Shown here piece after piece: positions 15,770 to 22,718 of a stretch of DNA of 64,000 bases; position 1 is the stretch's first letter; each line of letters starts with the position of its first letter. The position numbers and the translations under genes were made by a program. The DNA is from a virus: the IMG/VR virus record IMGVR_UViG_3300029362_000615; one strand, written 5' to 3'. Below the pieces are notes generated by a model, which was not told where the DNA came from, did not search any database, and saw only the letters and a program-made list of their open reading frames with translations.

Positions 15770-16522
15770 ATGACAAGAAATGAATTGCTTGGAGCGTTAT
15801 GCTTCCCAGAATACAATTTCATTCGAGAGAATGAACATCTTGGCAAGCATATGATGTTCGTAACGGTCGGTGGCAGCCACGCTTATGGAACAAATGTTGA
15901 GGGTTCAGATCTTGACATCCGTGGTGTGGCATTAAATTCAAGAGAAGACCTTCTTGGTCTTGGCGAGTTTGAACATTATGTGGATACTCAAACTGATACT
16001 ACAATCTACAGCTTTAATAAGGCTGTGAAGCTAATGTGTAGTGGAAATCCTAATATGCTGGAGCAGCTAGGGAACGCCGATGAACTCGTTATTAGCTATA
16101 GTCCAATGACAAAGTTACTTATGGATAATAAAAAGCTGTTCCTGTCGAGGCGTGTAATCTATTCGTTTGGCGGTTTTGCAGGTAAGCTGATTCAGAAGGC
16201 TGATACGCTGGATAAAGATCCAATTTATCATGGTTCAAAGAAAATGCACAAGACGGTGATGAATGCAATTCGTGTATACCTGATGCTCTTTGACATCTTA
16301 GAAAAAGGTGAAATTAAAACTTATCGAGATAACGATCATAACTTCCTGACGCAGCTTCGCAACGGTGAATATGATTACAAAGAGATTCGTCAGCAACTGA
16401 TTCCGGCCTATGAAAGCAGATTGTCAGTTGACAAGAGTGAGACTTACCTGCCGGACAATGTTGATTGGAAGCGGGTCAACGAGCTTGTAATAACCGTAAA
16501 TGAGGAATCGTTGAAGATTTGA
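15770..16522 (+). CDS. Pol-beta-superfamily nucleotidyltransferase (COG3541/PF10127-like)
   Basis: GSHAYGTNVEGSDLDIRGV, i.e. the hG[GS]...D.D NTase signature. Confidence 0.5.
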   Translation: MTRNELLGALCFPEYNFIRENEHLGKHMMFVTVGGSHAYGTNVEGSDLDIRGVALNSREDLLGLGEFEHYVDTQTDTTIYSFNKAVKLMCSGNPNMLEQLGNADELVISYSPMTKLLMDNKKLFLSRRVIYSFGGFAGKLIQKADTLDKDPIYHGSKKMHKTVMNAIRVYLMLFDILEKGEIKTYRDNDHNFLTQLRNGEYDYKEIRQQLIPAYESRLSVDKSETYLPDNVDWKRVNELVITVNEESLKI

Positions 16523-17297: not shown

Positions 17298-17624
17298 ATG
17301 AGTGAGAAAAAGGTTTTGGGAGTTATACAGGTTGAGAACTTTTTGAAGTACATAAGAAAAAAGCGAGTGTGGGTCTGTTTTATTTGCAATGGTGTGGATG
17401 TTCACATGATCTGCAAAAAGATGGACGACATTGGCGTAGAGACGCATGGGATTGTCAAAGGCATTGGATTTTTTGGAAACGAAAGTCATATTGAGTTGCG
17501 GCAAGAATGTCACGAAGTAAGGAGGGTTGAGTTTAGGCCGGGCGATAAAGAGAAAGCGTATGAGATGATATTCGATAACACCAGCGTGTTCGTATCAGAG
17601 AATCCAGAGTTGTACGGGCACTAA
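17298..17624 (+). CDS. hypothetical protein
   Basis: ORF track. Confidence 0.45.
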   Translation: MSEKKVLGVIQVENFLKYIRKKRVWVCFICNGVDVHMICKKMDDIGVETHGIVKGIGFFGNESHIELRQECHEVRRVEFRPGDKEKAYEMIFDNTSVFVSENPELYGH

Positions 17625-17715: not shown

Positions 17716-18135
17716 ATGGACAACAATATTGACCCAAAGGTCGGAGAGGTTTGGTTGGTTGATCTATCCAATGCGACAGGTCATCAGCAGCGCGGTATTC
17801 GACCGTTCGTTGTGACGAGCAACAATAAGCGCAACTTCTTTAGTCCAACAATTAAAGGGAATCCGTTGTCTTCCAGAATATACAAGCGCTCTCCGGTTCA
17901 TGTTCTACTCTCAAAGGAAGATTGTGATTTCCTAGAGGTTGATAGTATCGTTCTATGTGAAGAGACTGATACACTTAACAAAGGACAGTTCATTAAAAAA
18001 CTTGGTGTCTTGTCGGAGCGTCAGATGAATATGATCGCAATGGCAAGATGCAAGGATGAACCGTTTTTGCTTGCAGCATTCCTGAGCGGCGTACAACATA
18101 CCATGGAATTTCAGAATTTTGCCGCATTTGCTTGA
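17716..18135 (+). CDS. mazF: MazF/PemK-family endoribonuclease toxin (type II TA toxin fold), no adjacent antitoxin
   Basis: GEVWLVDLSNATGHQQRGIRPFVVTS...SPTIKGNP...DSIVLCEETDTLNKGQFIKKLGVLSERQMNMI matches the MazF/Kid consensus. Confidence 0.7.
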   Translation: MDNNIDPKVGEVWLVDLSNATGHQQRGIRPFVVTSNNKRNFFSPTIKGNPLSSRIYKRSPVHVLLSKEDCDFLEVDSIVLCEETDTLNKGQFIKKLGVLSERQMNMIAMARCKDEPFLLAAFLSGVQHTMEFQNFAAFA

Positions 18136-18188: not shown

Positions 18189-19115
18189 ATGCTTACTGAA
18201 GAAAAAATCAAAGCTTTTGCCGAAAAGTATTCTGATAGAAGCGGTGAGTTTGTTGCATCGACGATGCGTCACGTCATGGATTACGAGGCCGAGCGTGGGT
18301 ATGAGTTGTTTGACTTCACAAAAGATGATTTCGTAAAGATGTTTGCCAAATATAATTGGGTGAATTCGAGTCGTTCGTTTAAAAATGTGAAGTCAATAAT
18401 CACAGGCTACATCAAAAGTGAAAACGAAACAAGCATGTATGATCTGGCTGACTTTTCAGAGAGCGATGTAAGCGCAGATGATATGTACAATGACAGTTAT
18501 TTTGCGTCGGTTGACGAATTTGTTGACTTCTTAAATAAGTACGAAGAGCCATATCAGATTCGTATGAACGTAATTGCTGTTTTGTACTGGATTGGTCTTA
18601 CTTCCGATGAGATTTCTAATCTAACAATTAACGATGTGGATTTTGAATCTAATACCGTTCTTGATAAGACTGATGTTGACGCAAGGTTAATGGATATTAT
18701 CAAGCAATGTTACGAGATGAAACAGTATGATGCCCCCAATAAGAGCGGTTATAGAACATTTTATGTCATGAATGGCGATTATATCCTACGCAAAACGAAG
18801 GATAAACCCGGTGTAAACAGTGATCCAAAGACGTCTATAATTTCAATTCATGTCTATTTTTCGAGGTTGAACGATATCCTCGAAAAAAGGCATCATTCAA
18901 AAACCTTAGATCAAAGATATTTAGCCAGAAATTGTGAGTATATCAAGGTTTATAACTACTGTAAAACTCATCCAAAATTTAATCTTGCAGAACTTAGTTT
19001 CGGAAATGGTAAAGGTCCTCTTGCGGACATTATCGGAAGAAAGTGCAGTAAAGTTGCCTATCTTAGTTTCCGGCAAGGATATAAAGGTTGGGTTGAATAT
19101 TTCCATGAAAATTAA
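18189..19115 (+). CDS. tyrosine-recombinase-like protein, possibly degenerate (box I Arg replaced)
   Basis: RMNVIAVLYWIGLTSDEISNLTINDVDF resembles integrase box I but has Thr instead of Arg. No clean H-x-x-R motif. Confidence 0.3.
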   Translation: MLTEEKIKAFAEKYSDRSGEFVASTMRHVMDYEAERGYELFDFTKDDFVKMFAKYNWVNSSRSFKNVKSIITGYIKSENETSMYDLADFSESDVSADDMYNDSYFASVDEFVDFLNKYEEPYQIRMNVIAVLYWIGLTSDEISNLTINDVDFESNTVLDKTDVDARLMDIIKQCYEMKQYDAPNKSGYRTFYVMNGDYILRKTKDKPGVNSDPKTSIISIHVYFSRLNDILEKRHHSKTLDQRYLARNCEYIKVYNYCKTHPKFNLAELSFGNGKGPLADIIGRKCSKVAYLSFRQGYKGWVEYFHEN

Positions 19116-19186: not shown

Positions 19187-21406
19187 ATGCAGATGAGAAC
19201 ACTTTTACTGTTCCGTGGAGCACCCGGTTGCGGGAAGTCCACCTATATTAAAGAGCATAATCTTGAGCAGTACGTATTGAGTGCTGATACACTTCGCCTT
19301 ATGTGCCAGAGCGCACAGGAAACACCTGATGGGCAGATGGAGATTTCTCCGCAGAATGATGATGTTGTATGGGAGATGCTTTTCAAACTGCTTGAGGTGC
19401 GGATGAGCCATGGCGAGTTTACTGTGATTGATGCAACGAATTCCAAGACGGTCGAAATGAATTGTTATAAGAATCTTGCAAAACAGTATCGTTATCGGAT
19501 GTATGTTATTGATATGACGGACCTTCCGATCGAGGAATGCAAACGAAGAAACGCTCAGAGAGAATGGCTAAAGCGAGTTCCTGAAGCGGCTATTGATAAG
19601 ATGTACGCTCGGTTTGCTACTCAAAAAGTTCCTTCTGGCGTGACAGTTCTTCCTTCTACTACGGATGTGATGTCCGATTTGAACTACTGCCCGAATGACT
19701 TTAACCAGTGGAAAAAGATACATATCATCGGTGATATTCATGGCTGCTATACCTGCTTGAGTGAATACCTTGGTGAGATGAAGGACGACGAGCTTTATAT
19801 CTTCGTTGGTGATTATCTCGATCGTGGCATCGAAAACGTTGAGGTATTCAAGTTCTTGTGTGATGTTGTAAATAACAACCGCAAGAATGTGATCCTTTTG
19901 GAAGGGAACCACGAGCATTGGCTGAACAAGTGGGGGCATGATAAACCGGTTCAAAGTGAAGAGTTTGCAAACTACACTCGTCCGCAGCTCTTTAAAGCCG
20001 GTATTGACAAGAACACTGCTCGTAAGATCTATTCCAGAGTCGGCCAGTGTGTCTACTTTGAGTATGATGGTAAGCGGTATTTCGTAAGTCACGGTGGTCT
20101 GAGCTATCTTCCTTATTTTCTTCCGTTCGTGTCTGCGGATCAGATGATTAAAGGCGTAGGCCGCTATCCTGATATACTGACCGTGGCTGAGTCTTGGGAA
20201 AAGTCGATGCCGGATAGCTATATTCAGATCTTCGGCCATCGAAATGTACAGGATGTTCCTATTGATATGGGTCATCGGTGCTACAATCTTGAAGGCAAAA
20301 TCGAGTTTGGTGGATATCTTCGTTGTGTGGAGCTTGAACACGGTCAGCCTATCAAATGCGTAGAAACCAAGAATGATGTATTCCGAAAAGAGGAGCCAAA
20401 GACTGAAACTGCCGTTGAAATGAAAACTGAGTTCGATAACGCAGAACTTGTTAGTAAGATGCGTCAAAGCAAATATGTGTTTGAGAAGCGATTCGGAGAT
20501 ATTTCTTCTTTCAACTTCTCTCGTGAAGCATTTTATAAGAAGCACTGGGATGAGGTTTCTACCAAAGCAAGAGGGTTGTTCATTAACACAAAGACGAATA
20601 AGATTGTAGCTCGAAGCTATGATAAGTTCTTTGCGGTTGATGAGCGGAATGAAACGAGAATTGGAAACCTACAGAACACTTTGAAGTTCCCGGTGACTGC
20701 ATATCTAAAAGAGAACGGATTTCTTGGTATCATTTCGTATGATGCAGAACAGGATGGTCTGTTCATTGCAAGTAAATCCACTCCTGATGGGCCTTTTGCA
20801 GATATGTTCCGAAAGATTCTCATGGATACGACTTCTGATGAAGATCGTAAGAATCTGAAAGAAGTTGCAAAAGAGAATGGCTCCATCATCTTCGAGGTGA
20901 TTGATCCTGTGAATGATGCACATATCATCGAATATAAGAAACCGCACATTGTTTTGCTGGATATTATTGCAAATGATATGAATTTCAGTGTAATGGATTA
21001 TGATGATTTGAAGCGTGTAGCCGAGAAGTGTCATCTGCAGATTAAGGAGAAGGTTAAAACCTTTGAGAACTGGAGTGAATTCTATCCTTGGTACGAAGAA
21101 GTCATGAACGAGAACTATCTGCATCATGGTTTTGAACACGTTGAAGGCTTTGTTTTGCGAGACAGCAATAATTTCATGTTTAAGCTGAAGCTTCTGTATT
21201 ATAAGCACTGGAAGTTCTTGCGTGGTGTCATGCAGAGCGTTCAAAAACGTGGCTATTATGAAAATACCGCAAAGTTGTTTACTGCCGAGGATAACCTGTT
21301 CTATGGTTGGATGCGTGAACAACGAGAGAAAGATCAAGAGTCTTTCTGCAAGAAGGGTATTATTCAGCTGCGGAATGAGTTCTACGCAAGTCAGCAGAAG
21401 AGCTAA
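19187..21406 (+). CDS. pnkp: bacterial-type polynucleotide kinase-phosphatase-ligase (Pnkp) RNA/DNA end-healing and sealing enzyme
   Basis: N-terminal P-loop GAPGCGKST, a central calcineurin-like phosphatase (GDIHG, GDYLDRG, GNHE), and a C-terminal nucleotidyltransferase with KENG lysine motif. Second ATG at 19193 has better RBS spacing. Confidence 0.7.
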   Translation: MQMRTLLLFRGAPGCGKSTYIKEHNLEQYVLSADTLRLMCQSAQETPDGQMEISPQNDDVVWEMLFKLLEVRMSHGEFTVIDATNSKTVEMNCYKNLAKQYRYRMYVIDMTDLPIEECKRRNAQREWLKRVPEAAIDKMYARFATQKVPSGVTVLPSTTDVMSDLNYCPNDFNQWKKIHIIGDIHGCYTCLSEYLGEMKDDELYIFVGDYLDRGIENVEVFKFLCDVVNNNRKNVILLEGNHEHWLNKWGHDKPVQSEEFANYTRPQLFKAGIDKNTARKIYSRVGQCVYFEYDGKRYFVSHGGLSYLPYFLPFVSADQMIKGVGRYPDILTVAESWEKSMPDSYIQIFGHRNVQDVPIDMGHRCYNLEGKIEFGGYLRCVELEHGQPIKCVETKNDVFRKEEPKTETAVEMKTEFDNAELVSKMRQSKYVFEKRFGDISSFNFSREAFYKKHWDEVSTKARGLFINTKTNKIVARSYDKFFAVDERNETRIGNLQNTLKFPVTAYLKENGFLGIISYDAEQDGLFIASKSTPDGPFADMFRKILMDTTSDEDRKNLKEVAKENGSIIFEVIDPVNDAHIIEYKKPHIVLLDIIANDMNFSVMDYDDLKRVAEKCHLQIKEKVKTFENWSEFYPWYEEVMNENYLHHGFEHVEGFVLRDSNNFMFKLKLLYYKHWKFLRGVMQSVQKRGYYENTAKLFTAEDNLFYGWMREQREKDQESFCKKGIIQLRNEFYASQQKS

Positions 21407-21523
21407 ATTAAAAAATAGACATTTTATCGTGATTTTCGTTAAAATAATTAACGAAGTATCGTGACATTTCTTCCTCCGAAAATGCTCTGCGCGGGGCTGA
21501 CAGCCGGGAAAGACCGGCAATAT

Positions 21524-21608
21524 GGGGATATGGTGAAATTGGCAGCCACGCTTGATTCAAACTCAAGTGTCGAAAGACGTATCGGTTCAAATCCGATTAT
21601 CCCTACCA
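21524..21608 (+). tRNA. tRNA-Leu (anticodon CAA), type II with long variable arm, CCA encoded
   Basis: Acceptor GGGGATA/TATCCCT, anticodon loop TTCAAAC, T-loop GGTTCAAATCC. Confidence 0.8.
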
Positions 21609-21808
21609 TGAAGATCAGTTGTTCTAGCTCGTTCGGGGATTGGCCGTACATTGGCGACCGGAAAGACGTCATACCGGTAAAGGACGTCAAGCCAGACAAG
21701 AAGAGAAATAAGGTGTAAGCCGACTAGCTATCGGATAAATACTCTTCGATTCGCCAGAAAACTAGAATGTAAAACGAATGGTTGGCTGTTTCTGATCTTC
21801 TTTTATAT

Positions 21809-21891
21809 GCGCCCGTGGTGGAATCGCAGACACAGGAGACTTAAGATCTTCTGCCAGAGATGGCGTGCGGGTTCAAGTCCCGCCGGGCGCA
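21809..21891 (+). tRNA. tRNA-Leu (anticodon TAA), type II, no encoded CCA
   Basis: Acceptor GCGCCCG/CGGGCGC, anticodon loop CTTAAGA, T-loop GGGTTCAAGTCCC. Confidence 0.8.
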
Positions 21892-21898
21892 TTTGTAT

Positions 21899-21974
21899 CT
21901 GGGCGTAGCGAAGTTGGTATCGCACCTGTTTTGGGAACAGGGGACCGCAAGTTCAAACCTTGTCGCTCAGACCA
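21899..21974 (+). tRNA. tRNA-Pro (anticodon TGG), CCA encoded
   Basis: C1-G72 acceptor pair, anticodon loop TTTGGGA, T-loop AGTTCAAAC. Confidence 0.8.
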
Positions 21975-22061
21975 GCCCGAAAGGGCAAGGAAAAATTGTC
22001 CTCACATTATTCCCGGCTCTCTGGAAACGGAGCAGTGTGACGTAGTAAGCTGGGTATATGA

Positions 22062-22132
22062 TGCGCCATCGCCAAGCGGTAAGGCAGAGGACTTTGACTC
22101 CTCCATCGCAGGTTCGACCCCTGCTGGCGCAA
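22062..22132 (+). tRNA. tRNA-Gln (anticodon TTG), U1-A72 first pair
   Basis: Acceptor TGCGCCA/TGGCGCA, D-arm GCCAAGCGGTAAGGC, anticodon loop CTTTGAC, T-loop GGTTCGACC. Confidence 0.8.
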
Positions 22133-22135
22133 TAT

Positions 22136-22217
22136 GCGGATATGGTGGAATGGCAGACACGCCAGATTTAGGATCTGGTGCTTCGGCGTGTGGGTTCGAT
22201 GCCCACTATCCGCACCA
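22136..22217 (+). tRNA. tRNA-Leu (anticodon TAG), type II, CCA encoded
   Basis: Acceptor GCGGATA/TATCCGC, anticodon loop TTTAGGA, T-loop GGGTTCGATGCCC. Confidence 0.8.
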
Positions 22218-22316
22218 CGGTCATAGAATGGTTGCGTACCGTTTGTTGATCTCCTTTACTATTATTCCCAGCTCGCTCGTAAGAGTGCAGTAGTGCTTTG
22301 TAAGCTGGGTTTACAT

Positions 22317-22391
22317 GCAGCGGTCGTATAACGGTTAGTACATCAGCCTTCCAAGCTGAGGATGAGGTTTCGACTACCTTTCGCTGCTCCA
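22317..22391 (+). tRNA. tRNA-Gly (anticodon TCC), CCA encoded
   Basis: Acceptor GCAGCGG/TCGCTGC, anticodon loop CTTCCAA, T-loop GGTTTCGACTACC. Confidence 0.8.
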
Positions 22392-22581
22392 ATTTCGTAT
22401 GGGTAGGGATTTTAAGCGGTCAGTCCCGGCCGCGCCTGTGCGAAATACCACCCTGAAAGGGGCGAGATATAGGAAATGTGCATCGCTGTTATTCCTTCCT
22501 CGTCTATATGATATAGATGCAATAGTGTTTTATAAGGAAGGTGCCCAGTTGAATAGTTGCAGCTGTTTAACTGGTTTTTAT

Positions 22582-22658
22582 GGGATAGTAGCTCAGCTGG
22601 TCAGAGCTGGCGGCTCATAACCGCTTGGTCGGGAGTTCAAATCTCTCCTGTCCCACCA
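22582..22658 (+). tRNA. tRNA-Met or tRNA-Ile2 (anticodon CAT), elongator type, CCA encoded
   Basis: Acceptor GGGATAG/CTGTCCC with G1-C72 pair, anticodon loop CTCATAA, T-loop GGGAGTTCAAATCTCTC. Confidence 0.8.
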
Positions 22659-22718
22659 GCCCAATAGGGTATACATAAAACTGCTAGAACTTTTGTTTTA
22701 TAGGCGACGAAATAACAT

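Follow-up and report, generated by a model that had tools for sequence, protein, structure and literature searches.

A predicted trifunctional RNA heal-and-seal enzyme of the PHROG 8238 family encoded next to a seven-tRNA array in a putative SPbeta-like phage

The IMG/VR virus record IMGVR_UViG_3300029362_000615, of which a stretch of 64,000 nucleotides (the window) has been analysed, encodes directly upstream of a seven-tRNA array a 739-aa protein that, as judged from its sequence, is a kinase, a binuclear metallophosphatase and a lysine-adenylyltransferase ligase in one chain with complete catalytic motifs. This protein is probably an autonomous single-polypeptide RNA heal-and-seal enzyme, with the tRNAs as independent cargo. 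The phage origin of the window was borne out by SPbeta-like replication genes and by IMG/VR, where over 80 viral contigs of ~130-140 kb are near-identical, and the carrier is best explained as an SPbeta-like temperate phage of gut Clostridia.

Domains, catalytic residues and family of the protein

The gene and its three domains are arranged as follows.
19187..21406, + strand: gene of the predicted trifunctional RNA heal-and-seal enzyme (PHROG 8238 family), 739-aa ORF
19187..19681, + strand: domain 1, aa 1-165, polynucleotide 5'-OH kinase of the P-loop type, resembling CthPnk
19682..20392, + strand: domain 2, aa 166-402, binuclear metallophosphoesterase with predicted 2',3'-cyclic phosphodiesterase/phosphomonoesterase activity
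20432..21403, + strand: domain 3, aa 416-739, ATP-dependent RNA ligase (Rnl1/Trl1-LIG lineage) whose C-terminal helical module is Trl1-like

Gene callers place the start codon two codons further in on identical contigs, which results in a protein of 737 aa. The order of kinase, phosphatase and lysyl-nucleotidyltransferase given in the original prediction has been confirmed by all catalytic motifs and by the Pfam domains AAA_33 (aa 6-144, E 2.6e-22), Metallophos (aa 177-355, E 2.5e-15) and RNA_lig_T4_1 (aa 460-669, E 4.4e-40). The P-loop G11..K17, GD183xH185G, GD209xxD212R213G, GN241H242 and K508-E-N-G are invariant in 24 homologues; the same holds, in 24 homologues at 50-62% identity, for the essential residues of CthPnk and of the CthPnkp phosphatase and for ligase motifs I, III, IV and V. 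Besides significant HMM matches, all three domains have structural matches for their confident AlphaFold model (mean pLDDT 87.5; aa 403-415 as the sole disordered stretch). On these folds, residues and the family membership, each enzymatic activity is predicted; a paper with a biochemical assay of any family member was not found in the literature searched.

A stand-alone trifunctional enzyme is not unusual: the same architecture constitutes PHROG 8238, which over 110 cultured Firmicutes phages carry under the annotation "RNA ligase" and which is found also in Lachnospiraceae chromosomes. By its full-length, collinear profile match with identical three-domain order (E 5.4e-226, positions 1-734 of 737), the 739-aa protein is a further member of this catalogued and widespread phage enzyme family, labelled 'RNA ligase' or 'polynucleotide kinase', which includes Rlg of Staphylococcus phage Twort (QIW89035.1), gp147 of Brochothrix phage A9, a protein of Alicyclobacillus phage KKP_3916 and proteins of the Bacillus phages vB_BsuS-Goe11/Goe12 and SPbetaL2/L3/L8. 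Cultured-phage homologues amount to 113 full-length tblastn records that cover 98-100% of the length with 35-44% identity, the protein being at least 56% diverged from each cultured example, and more than 4,600 metagenome proteins possess the architecture, the maintenance of which throughout these collections argues for a selected, intact function. While the gene resides in a putative gut SPbeta-like phage with a tRNA array directly 3', the inspected cultured relatives are devoid of an adjacent array.

Lineage of the ligase and the proposed repair pathway

The protein had been identified as a Pnkp with the domain order of the bacterial enzymes, and this order as well as the essential residues of the N-terminal P-loop 5' kinase and the central binuclear metallophosphoesterase are indeed shared with CthPnkp, the nearest match for kinase and phosphatase also in structure. 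However, the bacterial Pnkp model TIGR04075 matches aa 5-305 only, that is kinase and phosphatase without the ligase, and reaches 79.9 bits where the cut-off demands 750. The matches of the ligase domain are to fungal Trl1-LIG and T4 Rnl1 rather than to Rnl4, the Hen1-dependent ligase of Pnkp, whose defining feature is a Hen1-binding insert and which cannot seal on its own (PMC3675462; PMC6379707). Pnkp family membership is thereby refuted, and an explanation as a true Pnkp of a Pnkp-Hen1 system, the Hen1 partner of which has been lost or is located elsewhere, deserves next to no credence. Among the neighbouring genes scanned no Hen1-like methyltransferase was found, an absence that calls for no explanation with a ligase of the Trl1-LIG/Rnl1-like clade; in difference to bacterial Pnkp, sealing would be expected to involve neither an activator nor 2'-O-methylation of the junction.

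Within this clade, 313 residues of the ligase can be structurally aligned with Trl1-LIG versus 248 with T4 Rnl1. Compared with fungal Trl1, the ligase domain of which belongs to the Rnl6 clade (PDB 6n0t, 6n67, 9qw7, 8rbj), the domain order is reversed (KIN-PASE-LIG versus LIG-KIN-CPD) and end healing is assigned to a metallophosphoesterase instead of a 2H cyclic phosphodiesterase. T4 Pnkp and Rnl1, the anti-PrrC tRNA repair system, are, on the other hand, two separate proteins in contrast to the one polypeptide here; the phosphatase of T4 is an acylphosphatase of the DxDxT type (PMC3592404), and the tRNA specificity-conferring C-domain of Rnl1 differs from that of the ligase described here.

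In the proposed pathway, the central metallophosphoesterase would open the cyclic phosphate and strip it to leave a 3'-OH, the N-terminal kinase would phosphorylate the 5'-OH, and the C-terminal ligase would become adenylylated at K508, transfer AMP to the 5'-phosphate and seal the break. Being of the self-sufficient Rnl1/Trl1-LIG lineage, the ligase would need no Hen1-type activator. The substrates, presumed as is the timing of expression, would most probably be tRNAs, or else other RNAs of translation, with loop cuts made by host or competitor ribonucleases, and an RlaP nucleotidyltransferase whose gene lies 2.7 kb upstream could put back nucleotides missing on the 3' side of the break. Trl1 needs a 2'-phosphate end for sealing. 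If the ligase, whose C-module resembles that of Trl1, shared this need, the simple heal-and-seal pathway would be wrong; this is countered by the Trl1 RxxR site, proposed to bind the 2'-phosphate, being K673-x-x-K676 here (N-x-x-K in the family consensus), and by the absence of Tpt1/KptA among the 46 window ORFs scanned.

The tRNA array, neighbouring genes and alternative explanations

The array consists of the following tRNA genes.
21524..21608, + strand: tRNA-Leu(CAA), CCA encoded (ARAGORN; Rfam 53.1 bits)
21808..21892, + strand: tRNA-Leu(UAA), CCA not encoded (ARAGORN; Rfam 52.0 bits)
21899..21974, + strand: tRNA-Pro(UGG), CCA encoded (ARAGORN; Rfam 61.7 bits)
22062..22132, + strand: tRNA-Gln(UUG), CCA not encoded (ARAGORN; Rfam 60.8 bits)
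22136..22217, + strand: tRNA-Leu(UAG), CCA encoded (ARAGORN; Rfam 56.6 bits)
22317..22391, + strand: tRNA-Gly(UCC), CCA encoded (ARAGORN; Rfam 56.5 bits)
22582..22658, + strand: tRNA with anticodon CAU, elongator Met or lysidine-Ile2, CCA encoded (ARAGORN; Rfam 65.1 bits)

The seven tRNAs originally listed were all recovered, as ARAGORN finds exactly seven spanning 21524-22658 and the Rfam model RF00005 scores them with 52-65 bits versus a gathering score of 29. The CAU tRNA is not an initiator since positions 1 and 72 pair as G-C. All seven anticodons start with U34 or C34 and thus read purine-ending codons.

Genes 5' of the ligase gene include the following.
15770..16522, + strand: RlaP-family Pol-beta nucleotidyltransferase (Pfam PF10127, 68.5 bits versus cut-off 23; phrog_388)
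17298..17624, + strand: 108-aa ORF before the MazF-like gene
17716..18135, + strand: predicted MazF/PemK-like endoribonuclease (Pfam PemK_toxin, E 2.1e-19)
18189..19115, + strand: MrpR/YopR-like integrase-fold protein, putative prophage repressor, directly 5' of the ligase gene

More conserved as neighbours of the ligase than the tRNAs are the MazF-like RNase and the MrpR-like repressor and, variably, RlaP. The RlaP-family protein, with a GGS...SDLDI catalytic motif, is a probable accessory repair enzyme that would add nucleotides to RNA 3' ends, its family being described to act on damaged RNA 3' ends (PMC12776372). It is variable cargo, within 6 kb in 26/80 close relatives; among more distant ligase loci (numbered with L), RlaP adjoins the ligase in L167/L168 and is near it in L170, L174, L216, L225 and L241, and Thg1 occurs near ligase homologues in L167, L168, L225, L236 and L237. 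This recurrence agrees with the 'syntax' of phage RNA repair, composed of ligase, kinase, phosphatase, RlaP/Thg1 and tRNAs (PMC7824862). The MrpR_N_CB match of the MrpR-like protein is weak (E 6e-4, under the Pfam cut-off), with phrog_5830 designating an integrase; syntenic homologues with 26-27% identity in L163/L164 show an unmarked MrpR_N_CB match. The function of MrpR has been described (PMC10516654).

Alternatively, ligase and array would have co-evolved as one counter-defence module, in which the enzyme mends host tRNAs cleaved by anticodon nucleases (PrrC, RloC or colicin-like) while tRNAs of the phage, above all its three Leu isoacceptors, stand in for the cleaved species. Gene and array are co-oriented and 117 nt apart, the array is located directly 3' of the ligase in 20/20 scanned loci drawn from 80 close relatives (88-100% identity), and the U34 or C34 anticodons are equally in line with such a module. 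Furthermore, tRNA clusters adjoin the ligase in the separate lineages L169, L208, L236/L237 and L243, often with Gln(UUG) and Leu(CAA/UAG); tRNA-Gln(UUG) is 89% identical to its counterpart in L169 and tRNA-Leu(UAG) 80-84% identical to those located 5' of the L236 and L237 ligase genes, so that a looser functional tie may exist. Both halves of the idea, T4 Pnkp/Rnl1 against PrrC and nuclease-insensitive phage tRNAs, are published hypotheses (PMC10264068; PMC7824862). However, no array is present 3' of the ligase in the relatives L001, L002, L163, L164 and L170 (43-62% identity), and at least two same-strand tRNAs within 8 kb occur in only ~7/87 diverse loci (45-62% identity), roughly the chance level by a rough estimate of 16/130, about 12% (16-kb window, 130-kb phage, one tRNA cluster). 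The anticodon loops also look ordinary, with U33 and a purine at 37, and in Clostridia no anticodon nuclease directed at tRNA-Leu, -Pro, -Gln or -Gly is known to us. With adjacency to the array limited to one lineage, 'repair plus replacement' as a functional unit, and with it a co-evolved module, is considered unlikely. Most likely, the seven tRNAs are separate translation-support cargo acquired independently in the present lineage only, which would have entered a variable slot that separates the methylase/replication genes from the ligase gene. Array content indeed varies among relatives, with an extra Gly, an odd tRNA labelled His(ATG) by ARAGORN and an HNH endonuclease insertion. The co-oriented array might be co-expressed with the ligase gene, yet would form no obligatory unit with it.

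MazF-type cleavage creates exactly 2',3'-cyclic-phosphate/5'-OH ends. The repair enzyme might be paired with the phage's own MazF-like RNase, encoded two genes upstream beyond the MrpR-like gene, reversing or limiting self-inflicted cleavage as a reversible switch in the lysis-lysogeny decision or in host takeover. In its favour, the gene order ~100-aa ORF, PemK/MazF-like, MrpR-like and ligase is found in 80/80 close relatives, where the MazF-like protein with 95-100% identity is conserved above its neighbours, and this order is also kept in L163/L164, L169 and L170 at 51-62% ligase identity. The protein aligns with S. aureus MazF (4mzm, E 5.5e-14) in the GIRP and SPT motifs, whose Arg and Thr, which we take from B. 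subtilis MazF to be the catalytic residues, are kept. On the other hand, a PemK gene is located within 8 kb in only ~8/87 diverse ligase loci and in none of the inspected cultured-phage relatives, a 2.6-kb insertion separates repressor and ligase in some close relatives, no antitoxin fold was found for the upstream 108-aa ORF, and the window shows no depletion of UACAU, the motif cut by Firmicute MazF, with 187 copies versus 151 expected. The common location in a cargo-rich lysogeny region accounts equally well for the gene order. This pairing is regarded as decidedly improbable, although the arbitrium lysis-lysogeny decision of SPbeta-group phages is modulated by host MazF (PMC10769878). Very improbable indeed is a role of the Trl1-like ligase in RNA processing of the phage itself instead of damage repair, for instance in splicing of intron-containing tRNA precursors or in circularising or joining structured spacer RNAs of the array. 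Tempting as tRNA-splicing ligases as the closest ligase structures and an array with conserved structured spacers and a tRNA-like minihelix might be, the seven tRNAs are uninterrupted full-length matches to the Rfam tRNA model, the odd tRNAs of relatives have long variable arms rather than introns (ARAGORN with intron search), most family members have no tRNA nearby and no splicing endonuclease was seen.

Structured spacers of the array

The small motifs noted earlier in the array are parts of larger repeats, a 53-nt spacer repeat and a three-copy 'ACCA + mini-hairpin' unit, both kept in relatives.
21469..21521, + strand: leader element with hairpin GCCGG-GAAAGA-CCGGC before the first tRNA (invariant block, alignment of 8 relatives)
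21975..21986, + strand: mini-hairpin GCCC-GAAA-GGGC directly 3' of the tRNA-Pro CCA (repeat D5, fold)
22006..22058, + strand: spacer repeat copy 1, hairpin with 3' arm TAAGCTGGGT, ending 3 nt before tRNA-Gln (direct repeat D1)
22261..22313, + strand: spacer repeat copy 2, ending 3 nt before tRNA-Gly (direct repeat D1, 74% identity to copy 1)
22392..22462, + strand: tRNA-like minihelix, then second mini-hairpin CCCT-GAAA-GGGG (fold z -2.17; ACCA + hairpin repeat D5)
22659..22670, + strand: mini-hairpin GCCC-AATA-GGGT directly 3' of the CAU-tRNA CCA (repeats D3 and D5; fold)

Of the two mini-hairpins described initially, both exist, GCCCGAAAGGGC at 21975-21986 and CCCTGAAAGGGG at 22451-22462, the second about 15 nt away from its predicted location; the repeated leader TAAGCTGGGT was found as described, at 22046 and 22301, 5-6 nt 5' of tRNA-Gln and tRNA-Gly. 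Copy 1 of the spacer repeat folds with z -2.35 and copy 2 with z -3.78 (0/200 shuffles equally stable). The fold of the leader element is no better than that of shuffles (z -0.70), and its core is present in 73/80 close relatives. The minihelix, not called as a tRNA by ARAGORN or by Rfam at E<=1, possesses a 7-bp acceptor-like stem (TTTCGTA/TGCGAAA) with ACCA at its end and is probably a tRNA remnant. Units of CCA and mini-hairpin of the kind at 21975..21986 occur in 74/80 relatives.

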